From positions 4,013 to 68,012 of the forward strand of contig JBCLGS010000001.1 in NCBI GenBank assembly GCA_039740895.1: a DNA stretch of 64,000 nt, in the 5' to 3' direction. Both the position numbers and the translations under genes were made by a program. This document shows, piece after piece, positions 7,287 to 63,746 of the stretch. This DNA comes from Parcubacteria group bacterium. GTDB taxonomy: Bacteria > Patescibacteriota > Minisyncoccia > Phycocordibacterales > DATDWN01. The stretch's first letter is position 1. Every line of letters starts with the position of its first letter. Under the pieces are notes generated by a model, which did not search any database, was not told where the DNA came from, and was given only the letters and a program-made list of their open reading frames with translations.

Positions 7287-7564
7287 TCAAAACATGTCTT
7301 TTTTGAGACATTGCACAGGATATTAGAAAACAACGACGAAATTAAAGAAAGACCGAAGCACTGTTTGACGAAGTCGTAATCGACGAGGTGAGAAGCGAAG
7401 CTTCGCAAGACCTTGAGTATTTTGTAATCAAAATGCAAAAGGTGTACTGCTCCTGTAAGGAGTTTGCGAGAGGTCTTCGTAATGAGGAAGATTGTTTTCT
7501 TGATATCCGAGCATAGCAAAAGCCCACCAGGGCTTTCCGTGTCTCAAAAAAGACATGTTTTGAG
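7287..7564 (+). repeat. Structured palindromic element C1 carrying the conserved core (7389-7460)
   Basis: 25-bp perfect terminal inverted repeats (ctcaaaacatgtcttttttgagaca / tgtctcaaaaaagacatgttttgag). A 72-nt core is shared with 25727-25802 and 63641-63717. Confidence 0.8.
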
Positions 7565-8371: not shown

Positions 8372-8497
8372 AAACTTTCAAATTTGACCAAGGTCGCGTA
8401 TAAAATTTGAAAAAAAATTGGAGCCTACCTGAGTGCGTAGGCGACGATTCTTTTTCAGATTTTAGACGATGAAATTGGGCATAATTTGGAAGTTTTA
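8372..8497. repeat. Structured intergenic element A1
   Basis: ~125-nt imperfect palindrome with central hairpin gcctac-CTGAGTGC-gtaggc (8423-8442). Its end runs into the rplQ stop codon. Confidence 0.8.
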
Positions 8498-8845
8498 TTA
8501 TACGAATTCTATTATGGCCATAAGGCTTCCGTCACTCTTTCGCGCTGGTAATTTGGTGATGCGTGTATAACCACCTTTTCTGTCTAGATATTTTGGAGAA
8601 ATATCATTGATAATTTTTTCTGCACCAAGAGCACCAATTTTTGATATAAGAAGTCTTTTTGATATAACTGTGTTTGTTCTTCCAGAAGTAATCATTTTCT
8701 CAGCGTATGGTCGAAGCTCTCGCGCCTTTGCATCTGTAGTCTTGATTTTACCTTCTAGAACTAATGCTAAAGCAAGCGACTTCATAAGTGCGTTTCGTAC
8801 TTTCTGTTCTCTTCCAAATTTTCTTTTTGTATTATGATGTCTCAT
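8498..8845 (-). CDS. rplQ: 50S ribosomal protein L17
   Basis: MRHHNTKRKFGREQKVRNALMKSLA is an L17 N-terminus. Confidence 0.95.
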   Translation of the reverse strand: MRHHNTKRKFGREQKVRNALMKSLALALVLEGKIKTTDAKARELRPYAEKMITSGRTNTVISKRLLISKIGALGAEKIINDISPKYLDRKGGYTRITKLPARKSDGSLMAIIEFV

Positions 8846-9941: not shown

Positions 9942-10067
9942 AAAACTTCCAAATTTAGCCAAGATCAAGTATAAAATTTGAAAAAGAATTGGAGCCTACC
10001 TGAGTGCGTAGGTGACGATTCTTTTTCAAATTTTAGACGATGAGATTGGTTATAATTTGGGAGTTTT
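9942..10067. repeat. Structured intergenic element A2
   Basis: 17-bp perfect arm aaaatttgaaaaagaat / attctttttcaaatttt and hairpin gcctac-CTGAGTGC-gtaggt. Its end overlaps the rpsD stop. Confidence 0.8.
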
Positions 10068-12481: not shown

Positions 12482-13060
12482 TTACAGCAAAACATTATTG
12501 ATGCATGATTTTTGTTGTGCAAAAATCAAAAACTCCCTATTTTTGCCCTTCTCGCCGAGGATTGGTGATTCTGTTTCAGAAAGGATTTCGAGACCGAGGG
12601 ATTTTAATTTTTCTCTAACTTTTTCCAAAACTTCCGGAATAAACTCCTCCTCTAGCTTCCCTTTACGAATCATTCTTTGCTCCGCCTCATAGTGTGGCTT
12701 TAGCAATACTATAATATGCCCACCTTCTTTCAAATTTAGCAGAACATTTGGAATGACTTTTTCTAATTTGGTCCAGCTGGTGTCCACAGATATTAAGTCT
12801 GGCTTTTCTGGTAGCAAAACATGCATGGCATTGTTTCTCTCTAGCACTACCACTCTTTTGTCCTTTCGAAGCTTCCAGTCCAAAACGCCATAGCCAGTCT
12901 CTACTGCATAAACCTTTAGAGCACCGTTCTGAAGTAGACAATCAACGAAACCGCCCGTACTGGAGCCAAAATCAGCACAAATAAGACCCTTGGGGCTAAA
13001 TCCAAAGGTTTTTAAGGCATGTTCCATCTTCTCCCCGGCACGAGATACATATATAGTCAT
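12482..13060 (-). CDS. tlyA: TlyA/FtsJ-like rRNA methyltransferase
   Basis: SAM-binding DFGSSTGGFVDCLLQNGA. The start is taken at Met44 (13060) because upstream codons are encoded by palindromic element C4. The last codons and stop lie in a 30-nt palindrome shared with mnmA. Confidence 0.75.
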   Translation of the reverse strand: MTIYVSRAGEKMEHALKTFGFSPKGLICADFGSSTGGFVDCLLQNGALKVYAVETGYGVLDWKLRKDKRVVVLERNNAMHVLLPEKPDLISVDTSWTKLEKVIPNVLLNLKEGGHIIVLLKPHYEAEQRMIRKGKLEEEFIPEVLEKVREKLKSLGLEILSETESPILGEKGKNREFLIFAQQKSCINNVLL

Positions 13061-13260
13061 TTGAATATATTTTTTAAGACACGCATAAAGCCTTGGTTGG
13101 CTTTTGCTATGCTCGGATATCAAGAAAACAATATACTCGATACATAGCCCTTTCGCAAACTCCTCGTCGAGTACGACTTCGTCAAACAATGCTTCGGGCT
13201 TATTTCATCTTCGTATTTGTTTTCTAATATCCTGTGCAATGTCTTAAAAAATATATTCAA
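13061..13260 (-). repeat. Structured palindromic element C4 (homolog of C1, inverted, core absent)
   Basis: 21-bp perfect terminal inverted repeat ttgaatatattttttaagaca / tgtcttaaaaaatatattcaa. The reverse complement aligns with both C1 arms but joins cgacgagg directly to agtttgcga. Confidence 0.8.
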
Positions 13261-13265
13261 ATGTC

Positions 13266-24167: not shown

Positions 24168-25586
24168 TTATAGCGTTTTTTCGATAATTCCTCCGCCAAG
24201 ACACTTATCCCCCCGCCCGCCTCGACCATGAGAGCGTGTCGGGCAGGCATCATACAAAACAGCAGACTGTCCAACCGCCACGCCATTTTGAGGTTTGTCA
24301 AACTTAATTACATAACATGCAGGACTTTTTTTTGAGCTATCGAAAAAATGTTCTTGCTTACGCAAAACATTATTTTCGATCCGATTTTCCTTGTTGGAAA
24401 ATCGTCTGCGTTCTCGTGCAGAAGGCTCTCTTCTGCAAGTCCTACTAATAGTGCATTTTTGTTTTTCTTGACGATATCTTATTCGGACTAGACATTTTAG
24501 AGGAAGTTTTGGTTCGGTGTTTGAAATAAAATGCATATCTGAAACAACAACTTCAGAAGTGCTGAAAACATCCTCAGCTTCAGTTTCTTTATTTGCGACA
24601 GTAATGGTATTTTTATCCAAATCTTTTGCTACCACAAAATACCGAGGCTCATTTGGAGTTTTTTTCAAGATATTATATCCCTGTCTAGCACCTATGGTGT
24701 AAAAAATTGCACCATCGTGATATCCAATAACTTCACTACTAGTATTCAAAACATCTCCCCGTTTAGTTTTTATAAAGTGAGATAAAAATTCACGCATATC
24801 AAGTTTGCCCAAAAAACAAACCCCTTGGCTGTCTTTCTTTGTGGCTGTTGGTAAACCAAACTTTTCCGCGAGCTTCCGAACCTCTGGCTTTGTCATCCCA
24901 CCAATCGGAAAAAGTGAACGAGAAAGCTGTTCTTGATTCAGTGTGTATAAAAAATATGATTGATCTTTATTTTTATCAACTGATTCATGGAGTTGATACT
25001 CGTAATTAAAAATCTCTTTCTCGTCATATCCTTTGGGGAGCACGGATATTTTTCTGTTGAAAAATTCCTCAAGTCTCGCCTGCCCGGCTTGCGAAGTCTC
25101 CCCAAAGGATACGACATCAACGAGATTTTTTTTACTTATCAATCCTATTTGACTATAGTGACCAGTGGCAATAAAATCTGCACCCATCTCCAGTGCCTTT
25201 TTTAAAAAGACACCAAATTTTACATATTTATTACAAAAAACATCTGGGTTTGGAGTTCGTCCCATTTTATACTCTCTTATCATATAGTCAGCAACTTCTT
25301 TCTTGTATTCAGCTTCACAATCCATGGTCAGGAAAGGAACACCGAGTGTGGCGCAAACCCGCATAGCACTTCGTCTTTCTTCCTTCCAATCACATGGCAA
25401 AAAATCTGGATGCCAGGTCTTCAAAAATACACCTGTCACGTCGAAACCATCCCTAAACCCCTCTGGGGTCGGGCGACCAAATAATTTTTCAAAATTATTT
25501 GGTGTAGCCTTTTGTAAGAGCGCCAAAGCCACAGAGCTATCCACTCCACCTGAGACACCTACGAACACCTTTGGCTTTTTATTCAT
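24168..25586 (-). CDS. mnmA: tRNA 2-thiouridine(34) synthase MnmA with in-frame insertions
   Basis: PP-loop VGVSGGVDSSVA, GHY and a C-terminal LGGGII. It is longer than I recall for typical MnmA, owing to inserted segments. Confidence 0.9.
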   Translation of the reverse strand: MNKKPKVFVGVSGGVDSSVALALLQKATPNNFEKLFGRPTPEGFRDGFDVTGVFLKTWHPDFLPCDWKEERRSAMRVCATLGVPFLTMDCEAEYKKEVADYMIREYKMGRTPNPDVFCNKYVKFGVFLKKALEMGADFIATGHYSQIGLISKKNLVDVVSFGETSQAGQARLEEFFNRKISVLPKGYDEKEIFNYEYQLHESVDKNKDQSYFLYTLNQEQLSRSLFPIGGMTKPEVRKLAEKFGLPTATKKDSQGVCFLGKLDMREFLSHFIKTKRGDVLNTSSEVIGYHDGAIFYTIGARQGYNILKKTPNEPRYFVVAKDLDKNTITVANKETEAEDVFSTSEVVVSDMHFISNTEPKLPLKCLVRIRYRQEKQKCTISRTCRREPSARERRRFSNKENRIENNVLRKQEHFFDSSKKSPACYVIKFDKPQNGVAVGQSAVLYDACPTRSHGRGGRGDKCLGGGIIEKTL

Positions 25587-25623
25587 TCACAAGTTATAAC
25601 ATAAAATTAGAAGATGGTAAAAT

Positions 25624-25865
25624 AAAACAAACTAAATAATACCTTTTCTGAGACCCCGCAGACCTGAAGCAGGTTTTGTCAACGACCCGACTGAAAGGAG
25701 GGCTCATTGACAAATTCAGGTCGAGGTGAGAAGTGATAGTATCACTTCGCAAGACCTTGAGCGTCTGTAGTCAGATGCGAAAGGTGTACTGCTCCTGTAA
25801 GGAGAGAATTCAAAACCCGCTGGGGTTTTGAATGTTCTCAGAAAAGGTATTATTTAGTTTGTTTT
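25624..25865 (+). repeat. Structured palindromic element C2 carrying the conserved core (25727-25802)
   Basis: ~30-bp terminal inverted repeats (aaaacaaactaaataataccttttctgaga / tctcagaaaaggtattatttagtttgtttt). Its end overlaps the mltG stop. Confidence 0.8.
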
Positions 25866-26883
25866 ATTTGAGATATTTTTGCTTGTTAATAATATGCTCA
25901 GCAAAAGTTTTTGCGTAGTGAATTGTGCCATCTTTTTCTGTGAGAAAATAAAGATAATTTGTTTTTATAGGTGTATATGCGGCAATGATAGCATCGATAC
26001 CGGGGTTTGATATTGGTCCTATAGGAAGACCTTTATTTGTGTAAGTATTGTAAGGAGAATCTATTTTCAAATCATCCAAAGTTAATTCGTATGTATTTTT
26101 TCCATTTATATATTTAAAAGTCGCATCAACTTGTAGTGGCATACCGATAGCAATTCTTTTCCATAAAATACCTGCCACTATTTGTTTGTCTTTAGGAAGT
26201 GCCTCACCTTCAAGGATTGAAGCCATAATGATGATATCACTAATTGATTTTTTCGTCGTTTGAAGATTTGCAACTTGGAGAATTTTCTTATTGAAATTAT
26301 TCTTCATCAATTCTATAATGTCTGCAGGTTTCGCACTCATCGATACAAAATATGTATCAGGAAATAAATAGCCTTCATATTTTTTGGCTGAATCAACGAA
26401 TTCTTTTTTATTAAATTTCAATAAATTTTTCTCAAGATAATCCCCTATCTGAAATACATTCCAACCTTCTGGTATTGTAATTTTAATTGTATTGATTTGA
26501 AATACTCCATTAACCAGTCTGCGTGCCAACATGAACGAACTTTCTTTCTTGGACAACAAATAATCACCAGCGATAACCTTTTTTTCACCACCAAAAAGAA
26601 TAACCAGCGAACGGAAAACTAATTCCGAACCAATAATATTCTTATTCTTCAAATCAACTGTAATGGACTGGAGAGATTCTCCAAAGCGTATTGTCAAAAC
26701 ATCTCCAACAGGAAAATTTGTTGGTGTAGTGAACAAAAGAACAGAAATAAATGCAAAAATAAAAGCTGTAATAAAAGCTAAAATTGCTTTTGGTCTGGTA
26801 ACTTTCTGATATTCCACATACACCTTAACCTTTTCAGACCAAGATTTCAAAAAAATAATATATTTTGGGTCTTCCATAGGCAA
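25864..26883 (-). CDS. mltG: Endolytic transglycosylase MltG (YceG-like)
   Basis: N-terminal TM and a YceG domain (LEGYLFPDTY, ASILEGEA, SPYNTYTNKGLPIGPISNPG). Confidence 0.88.
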   Translation of the reverse strand: MPMEDPKYIIFLKSWSEKVKVYVEYQKVTRPKAILAFITAFIFAFISVLLFTTPTNFPVGDVLTIRFGESLQSITVDLKNKNIIGSELVFRSLVILFGGEKKVIAGDYLLSKKESSFMLARRLVNGVFQINTIKITIPEGWNVFQIGDYLEKNLLKFNKKEFVDSAKKYEGYLFPDTYFVSMSAKPADIIELMKNNFNKKILQVANLQTTKKSISDIIIMASILEGEALPKDKQIVAGILWKRIAIGMPLQVDATFKYINGKNTYELTLDDLKIDSPYNTYTNKGLPIGPISNPGIDAIIAAYTPIKTNYLYFLTEKDGTIHYAKTFAEHIINKQKYLK

Positions 26884-36853: not shown

Positions 36854-36939
36854 AATCAGACTATATATTCAAGTCAAAGTATTGTATATTAATTTTACAA
36901 CTAAATAGTTAGTAGTAGCCTAAACCAGTAATGATACAG

Positions 36940-37052
36940 GTATGGCAAAGGTCCAGTTAGACATCAAAGAACCAATCATGGGGTTGTCTAACTGGCCATA
37001 TCGGGAAACCGATATGAGTGACTTCGGTCACTACCTATGTGGTGGGCTTTTT
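36940..37052 (+). ncRNA. Candidate structured RNA or leader (unclassified)
   Basis: Three hairpins: an 11-bp stem 36953-36963/36985-36995; catatcgg-GAAA-ccgatatg (36997-37016); agtgac-UUCG-gtcact (37017-37032). A GGGCUUUUU tract follows. Confidence 0.45.
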
Positions 37053-63170: not shown

Positions 63171-63299
63171 GGGCCCGTAGCTCATCTGGTAGAGTGAGTT
63201 TGGGATAGGGACCCAAACGCAAGACCGGAGGCGCGACGGCGCTGAGGTGGGGTCGAAAGATTTTTCAGTAGAAAAATACTTTTGACCAGCATTTGCAAT
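63171..63299 (+). pseudogene. tRNA-Ala 5' fragment interrupted by a 92-nt structured insert
   Basis: The first 24 nt are identical to tRNA-Ala at 63319. An insert spans 63195-63286, then agcatttgcaat matches the anticodon-loop region. No 3' half. Confidence 0.6.
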
Positions 63300-63318: not shown

Positions 63319-63391
63319 GGGCCCGTAGCTCATCTGGTAGAGCACATCATTTGCAATGATGGGGTGGCAGGTTCGAGTCCTGTCGGGTCCA
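63319..63391 (+). tRNA. tRNA-Ala(UGC)
   Basis: Folded by hand as a cloverleaf: acceptor GGGCCCG/CGGGUCC with G3-U70, anticodon loop UUUGCAA, T-loop UUCGAGU, discriminator A. CCA is not encoded. Confidence 0.9.
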
Positions 63392-63583
63392 CAGAAAAAT
63401 CCGCATTACAGCGGATATTTTTGGTGGTGTTTGTTTGAAAAAGTCAGAACCCATTTCGAGCAGAACCCCTAGCTTCGCACGCTCCGCGTGCGTGGTGGCT
63501 TGAAACTCAATCGTACGCTCCGATTGCGCCTCGGGCGCGCTCGCGGACTCGCGCGGGCAAGGGAACACTTGTGCAGAGCCAAA

Positions 63584-63746
63584 ACCCAAAAATTTTCCTT
63601 CCTTTCTGATTTAATTCGGCGGGGGGTGTGGGGGGTGAGGTGCGACAACTGGAAGCACCGCAAGATCTTGAGCATTTTGTAATCAAAATGTGAAAGGTGT
63701 ACAGTTTCTGTAAGAAAACGACAAAAAATGGAAAGGAAATTTTTGG
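63584..63746 (+). repeat. Structured element C3 carrying the conserved core (63641-63717)
   Basis: Outer stem ccaaaaattttccttcc / ggaaaggaaatttttgg. The core shares GCAAGAYCUUGAG, the attttgtaatcaaaat hairpin and AAAGGUGUAC with C1 and C2. Confidence 0.7.

Follow-up and report, generated by a model that had tools for sequence, protein, structure and literature searches.

In the window, that is, the whole 64-kb stretch of DNA analyzed here, the genes mltG and mnmA flank a composite element designated C2 (Table 1). A preliminary description had put its terminal arms at ~30 bp; they are indeed exact reverse complements, and pairing extends 4 nt further on each side, resulting in a perfect inverted repeat of 34 bp. 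Chance repeats were controlled for with 30 first-order Markov resamples of the window, in which the longest perfect inverted repeat within 400 nt was 12–15 nt (19 nt in one case), as compared with the 34, 26, and 24 nt observed in the window itself. Folding of the segment 25615–25875 (261 nt) against shuffled sequences yielded z = −12.8 on the plus strand and −14.3 on the minus strand. The mltG stop codon lies within the terminus of C2, as had been noted before, which places the last codon, AAA, and the TAA inside the right arm. The conserved core postulated for C2 also proved real, as judged from its score with a covariance model (R1, see below).

The internal hairpin, by contrast, had been described as 8 bp long but measured 10 bp (25809–25818/25823–25832). 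It resembles a weak bidirectional terminator with just three G-C pairs, and counterparts adjoin one arm in two related elements of the window, C1 and the 13058 element. A terminator scan of 25400–26000 revealed no terminator-like site and did not flag this hairpin. For the 5′ module, nhmmer found no homologue among the other loci fetched, and the only Rfam hit was weak and sub-threshold; when it was used to scan metagenomes, all 57 matches were unrelated gut sequences. Nor did nhmmer, run with the arms and modules of C2 on the whole set of related loci (∼0.9 Mb), yield a homologue of the modules or another arm match at E < 1.

Table 1. Features at the C2 locus and at related loci of the window.
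Feature	Position	Strand	Remarks
mnmA	24168–25586	−	flanks C2
Inserted segment	25602–25863		262 nt; 10 nt (TTTGTTTTCG, gene sense) in the sister strain
Extra 18 nt	25602–25619	−	between arm and mnmA −10 box
Left arm	25620–25653		inner 12 nt (CTTTTCTGAGAC) common with C1; outer part locus-specific
5′ module	25654–25723	+	copy-specific hairpin, closed by GACCTGAA/TTCAGGTC; ends CGAGG, leading into the motif
Three-helix motif (C2 copy)	25724–25808	+	antisense to mltG and mnmA; R1 89.8 bits, E = 4e-22
Small hairpin	25809–25832		10 bp; A-tract, CCC/GGG, U-tract; loop GCTG
Right arm	25836–25869		final 6 nt TTATTT, i.e., AAATAA on the minus strand (last Lys codon and TAA of mltG)
mltG stop codon TAA	25864–25866	−	native, found in the empty allele
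mltG (YceG)	25864–26883	−	flanks C2
C1	7285–7565	+	between grpE and rpsI; perfect 26-bp arms; motif at 7386–7466
Family A copies	8385–8500, 9950–10065, 11340–11450		gene sense minus
13058 element	13058–13263	−	relative of the C1 scaffold in opposite orientation; no motif; perfect 24-bp arms
LOOT RNA (Rfam RF03000)	36917–37032	+	full-length; 73.7 bits (gathering threshold 46.4); in a 506-nt intergenic gap
Copy of tRNA-Ala 1–24 plus divergent motif	63172–63281	+	anticodon-loop copy follows; upstream of intact tRNA-Ala
Divergent motif copy	63192–63281	+	R1 21.8 bits; fused to tRNA-Ala copy
C4 motif copy	63633–63721	+	downstream of tRNA-Ala; R1 80.3 bits

Insertion polymorphism and the stop codon of mltG

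A MltG homologue with 99% identity is encoded in NCBI assembly GCA_039740855.1 (contig L116), referred to here as the sister strain. By blastn, positions 1–4014 of L116 align with 29877–25864 of the window (97.7% identity) through the stop codon, and the match resumes at the mnmA −10 box (L116 4025–5197, window 25601–24417). At the mltG–mnmA junction, L116 contains 10 nt where the window contains 262 nt. More distant relatives have mltG–mnmA spacers of 37 or 122 nt without a C2-like element. C2 is a recent, strain-specific insertion. The reciprocal case was found as well: L116 carries a different copy of the motif (89.7 bits) directly after the mnmA stop codon, a site that is empty in the window (27-nt spacer alone). 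The two inserts share one orientation, in which the motif runs antisense to the genes. The empty sites lack hairpin potential and fold no better than shuffled sequences (z ∼0), which argues against a pre-existing hairpin or palindrome at the target and implies that the arms came with the insertion or were made by it.

Comparison with the empty allele also settled whether the native mltG stop codon had been replaced, as had been considered: AAATAA is present there, and the stop codon is thus the native one. No direct repeat was found at the junctions when the filled and the empty allele were compared, i.e., there is no sign of a target-site duplication. Moreover, the two alleles cannot be reconciled by one clean insertion, since 10 nt were replaced and 18 extra nucleotides lie outside the arms, which counts against the reading of C2 as a mobile element favored below. 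With its outermost 6 + 6 nt (AAATAA/TTATTT and AACAAA/TTTGTT), the C2 stem matches both sides of the empty site, each of which is paired there with an inverted copy of the other.

Two accounts of the position at the stop codon had been offered previously, an insertion preference at gene ends and selection for a structure starting there. Of the former, the sequence preference is supported because both empty sites read TAA|TTTG while TTTG follows the stop codon in only one of the 55 genes of the window; the evidence from these two events, however, points to this sequence (CAAA|TTA on the motif strand) as the target and not to TTTA/TAAA as had been proposed. Left flanks of the form YCAA|A were present at 5 of 13 inverted-repeat-bounded copies of the motif, a small sample. 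Space matters, too. The native mltG–mnmA spacer comprises 25 nt and contains the mnmA −10 box, and the final codons of mltG overlap the native −35-like TTGAAA, which precedes TATAAC by 16 nt. With the mnmA promoter in a spacer this short, the slot right behind the stop codon is nearly the sole insertion point that would be tolerated, and C2 abuts the stop codon because its target contains TAA and hardly another tolerated site is left. In the filled allele, the displaced TTG is changed to CTC, which is synonymous. There, TTACCA (25620–25615), formed by the extra 18 nt together with the first base of the arm, lies 16 nt upstream of TATAAC (25598–25593) and may possibly replace the native −35 box of mnmA; a consensus scan missed this putative promoter because its −10 box ends in C.

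The second account, by which a structure that starts there has been selected for, is not borne out, as the sister strain does without it and the motif occurs elsewhere in every orientation to genes. In its most explicit form, it would make C2 a cis-acting mRNA element, i.e., a 3′ stabilizer, a terminator, or an attenuator of translation termination of mltG. REP sequences within 15 nt of stop codons act in this manner, the C2 stem starts at the last mltG codon, a small terminator-like hairpin follows 40 nt downstream of the stop codon in gene sense, and three elements of the window begin 0–3 nt past stop codons. Yet neither a near-identical strain nor the more distant relatives have C2, the motif resides on the opposite strand, so that the mRNA has A-C mismatches in place of its G-U pairs, the terminator scan was negative, and the orientation of other copies is mixed, which together make such a role improbable. 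The position at the stop codon rather reflects the target sequence and little intergenic room. As family A also begins at TAA stop codons, abutment is a general pattern in this genome. The members of family A are separate repeats of ∼115 nt with conserved arms (AAAACTYCCAAATT/AATTTGGRAGTTTT) and a long inner hairpin; they begin at or 0–3 nt after the TAA of ribosomal-protein or rpoA-cluster genes, and in two of the copies this TAA is possibly part of the TAAAAC that ends the element itself.

A three-helix RNA motif dispersed through Patescibacteria

The core of C2 conforms to the pattern GGUGAG-H1-CGC AAG-H2(ACCUU GA GC..GC GA AAGGU)-GUAC-H3 (GUA loop), 85 nt with three helices. In an alignment of 79 copies, from which R1 was built, the junction strands are invariant. 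H1 runs from GAG to CGC and includes an A-G mismatch, H2 (ACCUU-GA-GC...GC-GA-AAGGU) contains tandem G-A pairs, and H3 is capped by the GUA loop. C2 follows the family definition, GGUGAG-H1-CGC AAG ACCUUGAG-H2-CGAAAGGUGUAC-H3, over the full length of the model and with all helices canonical. Covariation was substantial: 95.6% of cells are paired, compared with 79% in shuffles and ∼40% (30–53%) in slid controls, and changes on both sides of a pair amounted to 271 cells versus 61 in shuffles. G-U and U-G pairs are frequent in H2, which identifies the plus strand as the folding strand and points to an RNA.

When one genome per species was scanned for the exact pattern, at least 115 stretches matched; nearly all of those listed are labeled as Patescibacteria (CPR), and the listed ones include Paceibacteria, Saccharibacteria, and Zambryski-, Nomura-, Kaiser-, and Taylorbacteria. 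R1 detected 124 matches in 708 kb (100 loci fetched), as many as 4–5 per 8 kb, and four in the window, all on the plus strand. BLAST against phage records and plasmids gave no match; of two pattern matches in a scan of viral contigs, one failed the model and the other was marginal (10.2 bits, E = 0.37). A gathering-threshold scan of the window with Rfam 15 reported LOOT and one tRNA only and nothing for C2, and an E-value scan of 25560–25920 gave sub-threshold hits alone (≤20.5 bits). A literature search by topic and by motif sequence returned nothing relevant, and the motif appears to be undescribed so far. Several candidate identities were rejected by inspection of the sequence: a hammerhead, for lack of the CUGA turn; a K-turn, for lack of the 3-nt bulge; an anticodon-like H3 loop, as positions 79–85 and 80–84 covary as pairs; and a tRNA primer-binding site, as the complementarity stops short of the tRNA 3′ terminus.

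A few contigs that bear the motif (L039, L044, and L062), as well as Paceibacteria-like MltG and RpoA proteins (P0113 and P0143), are labeled Nitrospira, Acidobacteriota, or Steroidobacteraceae, probably because contigs of CPR were mis-binned into the metagenome-assembled genomes (MAGs) of other organisms.

The genomic context of the motif is varied. Its orientation relative to neighboring genes is mixed, and clustering of neighboring proteins revealed no recurrent one (the largest cluster had four members, all housekeeping). GC skew on the motif-sense strand was negative at 54 loci and positive at 52; this lack of a replication-strand bias argues against a single-strand mechanism like that of IS200/IS605. 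U-runs showed no asymmetry around 104 copies. Genes for tRNAs lie within 300 nt of 33 of 123 copies, on the same strand in 27 of the 33 and with the tRNA upstream in 21. In tRNA-adjacent copies, sequence antisense to tRNA positions ∼53–70 typically precedes the motif and sense sequence of positions ∼52–74 follows it; with these positions copied on either flank, the closing helix mimics an acceptor/T-stem minihelix.

These features could be those of a gene for a functional non-coding RNA, e.g., a tRNA-associated RNA or a ribozyme, transcribed from the plus strand, with the stem insulating its fold and copies arising by duplication and recombination, not by transposition proper. Even between deeply diverged CPR classes, the junction nucleotides do not vary, helices covary with strand-specific G-U pairs, and the proximity to tRNA genes fits as well, as do "open-H1" variants in which the motif replaces the T-loop of a tRNA-like minihelix (L090, L068, and L073) and a promoter-like site on the plus strand (25596–25623). 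In one pair of loci (L019 and L024), the motif occupies orthologous positions, is more conserved than the adjacent coding sequence, and has undergone a compensatory change, which makes a function beyond selfish spread plausible. The deep conservation argues for a cellular RNA function and not for selfish DNA alone, and in this respect counts against the mobile-element reading. On the other hand, the C2 copy is dispensable, being absent from the sister strain; promoter and terminator signals around copies are not consistent, orientation relative to genes is random, and some copies are antisense inside rRNA operons (L105 and L069). The presence of many copies per genome, with unrelated flanks, also befits a repeat better than a gene family. 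A non-coding RNA gene is hence regarded as a possible, though doubtful, identity of C2.

Among individual loci, those with copies in rRNA operons have the motif antisense in the 23S–5S spacer (L105 3850–4415) or just past the 5S gene (L069 1–1170 and L056 1–800). Tandem arrays are present in L073, L096, L041, and L036, with two units 100–230 nt apart or 4–5 per 8 kb; some arrayed units are of the open-H1, tRNA-like type and located directly downstream of the parent tRNA gene. In the sister strain (L122 3747–4260), the tRNA-Ala site contains an extra 276 nt with a 79-aa GIY-YIG ORF, which is flanked by tRNA-Ala fragments, one of them with a 29-nt hairpin in the D-arm. The tRNA-Ala 3′ end with its terminator hairpin (window 63383–63427) recurs as an inverted copy 2.7 kb away (L122 1006–1050). 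The C4 region is not colinear between the window and the sister strain, which suggests an inversion or rearrangement, putatively with its breakpoint at the tRNA 3′ end.

In L009, as in the window at 63172–63281, a copy of tRNA positions 1–24 is joined to the motif upstream of the intact tRNA gene; in L069, the fusion partner is a partial second copy of 5S rDNA. Such fusions could mean that C2 is what remains of a system with structured RNA genes as its targets, be it intron-like, driven by a homing endonuclease, or a retro-element; the motif would then be the mobile RNA and C2 an ectopic insertion. Fusions to partial tRNA or 5S copies at GAG(G)|UGAG beside intact genes (63172–63281, L009, L111, and L069), the sister strain's GIY-YIG ORF amid tRNA-Ala fragments beside a motif copy, further GIY-YIG ORFs near motifs in L084 and L025, and flanking direct repeats of variable length all fit this idea. 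However, neither a group I or group II intron core nor a ribozyme family was detected, GIY-YIG ORFs occur in only ∼3 of 116 loci, and those tRNA copies that are interrupted are fragments and not genes that could be spliced. The "junction microhomology" may itself be illusory because the CGAGG upstream is part of the conserved motif. An intron-like origin is accordingly given little credence. It is conceivable but unlikely that the motif represents a new, Patescibacteria-wide class of active RNA, either a self-processing or self-inserting ribozyme or the recognition core of an RNA- or structure-guided mobilization system. If so, perfect stems specific to each locus and partly duplicated tRNA and 5S genes would result from its insertion, and the mobile element would be of a kind without known counterpart in bacteria.

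Copy-specific arms and comparison with known elements

The arms of C2 had been called unrelated to those of C1. This holds for the outer 12–22 nt, which differ, but not for the inner 12 nt, which are nearly the same in C2 (CTTTTCTGAGAC), C1 (CTTTTTTGAGAC), and the 13058 element (TTTTTTAAGACA) and can be written as CTTTTYTRAGAC. Likewise, the term "terminal inverted repeats" is appropriate insofar as pairing within a copy is perfect, but the repeats are not conserved family-wide; as the arms are locus-specific, the label of a transposon family is only partly right. Among the 94 copies of the motif with full flanks, on which the arm statistics are based, 17 are flanked by perfect inverted repeats of at least 13 nt, compared with none of 93 displaced controls; the arms of C2 are the longest and those of C1 the second longest, and all 17 pairs differ in sequence. 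Another 17 of the 94 copies are flanked by perfect direct repeats of at least 13 nt (1 of 93 controls), the length of which varies from 13 to ∼60 nt. Between two sibling copies in one MAG (L030 and L054), four arm positions differ, and all four differences are compensated. The stems were presumably made or kept complementary by copying at the DNA level, i.e., fold-back, template switching, or arm-to-arm conversion; slow compensation at the RNA level is an unlikely cause of their perfection.

The 13058 element has AGG microhomology where the motif would be expected (junction CGACGAGG|AGTTTGCG), which fits the loss of the motif by deletion from a scaffold like that of C1. This scaffold (TTTTTTRARAC ATTGCRCAGGAWATTAGAAAACAA ... 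TTGTTTTCTTKATATYCGAG ... ATAGCAAAA) is conserved in other Paceibacteria MAGs (L047 and L097). There, the motif occupies a different slot (after ATATYCGAG), so modules are exchangeable.

Arms that differ at every copy bear on the possibility that C2 is a classical MITE, whose arms would be bound by a DDE transposase encoded elsewhere and of which many identical-armed copies should exist outside the window. C2 is small, lacks an ORF, has perfect arms, and is present in one and absent from the other of two close strains; its inner 12 nt recur in C1 and the 13058 element, and family A shows that conserved arms (AAAACTYCCAAATT) do exist in the window. Against this stand the lack of a target-site duplication at the filled site, the 17 inverted-repeat-flanked copies of which no two share arms, the failure to match the C2 arms and 5′ module in ∼0.9 Mb of related loci and in the metagenome scan, and direct repeats of 13 to ∼60 nt around other copies, whereas a DDE enzyme produces repeats of one fixed length. 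A classical MITE is therefore considered unlikely.

Among known repeats, MITEs of the Correia (CREE) and ERIC type from Neisseria and Enterobacteria are ∼100–250 bp long, without ORF, and form a hairpin closed by inverted repeats. They sit in short spacers beside genes and are co-transcribed as long stems; promoter elements can arise through them, and some strains have a copy where others do not. C2 is similar in size, absence of an ORF, closed hairpin, insertion into a spacer, and strain variability. Correia and ERIC elements, however, have terminal repeats conserved throughout the family and TA target duplications, whereas the arms of C2 are copy-specific, no duplication was seen, and a deeply conserved, covarying multi-helix RNA core is carried as cargo. 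REP/BIME sequences and REPINs, mobilized by RAYT, are abundant intergenic palindromes, often just after stop codons, and can affect termination and mRNA stability. C2 shares with them the location of an intergenic palindrome right behind a stop codon, but REP units are short (20–40 nt) and conserved in sequence, while C2 is a composite of ∼250 nt with a three-way RNA core, and a link to RAYT was not found.

Integron attC sites are hairpins that vary in sequence and are defined by structure; they start at or within the stop codon of the ORF that precedes them. C2 resembles them in its hairpin at a stop codon, oriented insertion, and lack of a target duplication; unlike in attC sites, the boxes RYYYAAC/GTTRRRY are absent from its arms, neither a cassette array nor a nearby intI is present (the neighbors are core housekeeping genes), and copies of the motif occur in both orientations across the genome. 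With PATEs derived from IS200/IS605, C2 has in common extensive hairpins and the absence of duplication and, as judged from two insertions, may share a short specific adjoining sequence and a fixed orientation to the target; it differs in having no conserved subterminal hairpins, no link to TnpA/TnpB, and no Rfam match to omega-RNA/HEARO, and the motif has no replication-strand bias (54:52).

Rickettsia palindromic elements are, like C2, small palindromic repeats that spread in a reduced genome; they are conserved in sequence and typically located in frame in coding genes, whereas C2 is intergenic. It is mnmA of the window that has in-frame variable inserts including a palindrome, as is the case for the Rickettsia elements. 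Its product comprises 472 aa, whereas that of the sister strain has 424 aa and those of relatives have 360 aa; the strain-variable inserts (aa ∼148–200, 391–424, and 447–458), among them one with an inverted repeat of 33 nt that is 85% complementary (25008–25040/25098–25130), resemble palindromic elements inserting in frame. Lastly, the mobile BHB introns of archaeal tRNAs (Thermoproteales) are a small RNA module found at many tRNA positions. The motif, too, is associated with many tRNA positions (25/26, variable loop, T-loop) and with a segment complementary to the adjacent exon; the lineage, however, is bacterial, the interrupted tRNAs are partial copies beside intact genes, and the candidate likeness comes without a BHB motif or splicing endonuclease.

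A probable mobile element built around a structured RNA motif

C2 behaves like a MITE or REP-type repeat, yet it has neither conserved terminal repeats nor a target-site duplication. The insertion polymorphism, the target sequence shared by two insertions, the conservation and covariation of the motif, and the perfect but locus-specific arms are best accommodated if C2 is a copy, specific to this strain, of a non-autonomous mobile element organized around a conserved RNA motif of ∼85 nt, which is considered probable though far from certain. C2 would have entered as DNA immediately past the mltG stop codon, at TAA|TTTG. Its cargo would be the three-helix motif of ∼85 nt, read from the plus strand, antisense to the genes at this locus and dispersed through Patescibacteria genomes; the motif would be embedded in copy-specific modules, with the long, perfectly paired stem closing the whole. 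This stem would not represent a conserved terminal repeat for binding a transposase, with only ∼12 inner nucleotides shared with C1, and its outer part may have been kept or made complementary by fold-back or template-switch synthesis or by arm-to-arm conversion. Mobilization would depend on machinery acting in trans; the neighbors examined gave no link to a transposase, reverse transcriptase, or integrase, and no donor copy with C2 arms was seen within the 64-kb window and the fragmentary assembly of the sister strain, whose contigs, as judged from exact-protein matches, do not extend over C1 and the 13058 element. As a consequence of the insertion, the mltG mRNA would have a 34-bp stem at its 3′ end together with the small terminator-like hairpin, and mnmA may have acquired a new −35-like box.

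Patescibacteria have tiny, compact genomes that are thought to hold few mobile elements. Here, two strains ∼2% apart in sequence differ by at least two insertions of a structured element within 10 kb. C2 provides a test case for the origin of perfect, copy-specific hairpin stems, and the motif may explain the frequent contig breaks in metagenome-assembled genomes of CPR. If confirmed, the motif would constitute a new and abundant class of RNA and a marker of strain-level genome dynamics in CPR.
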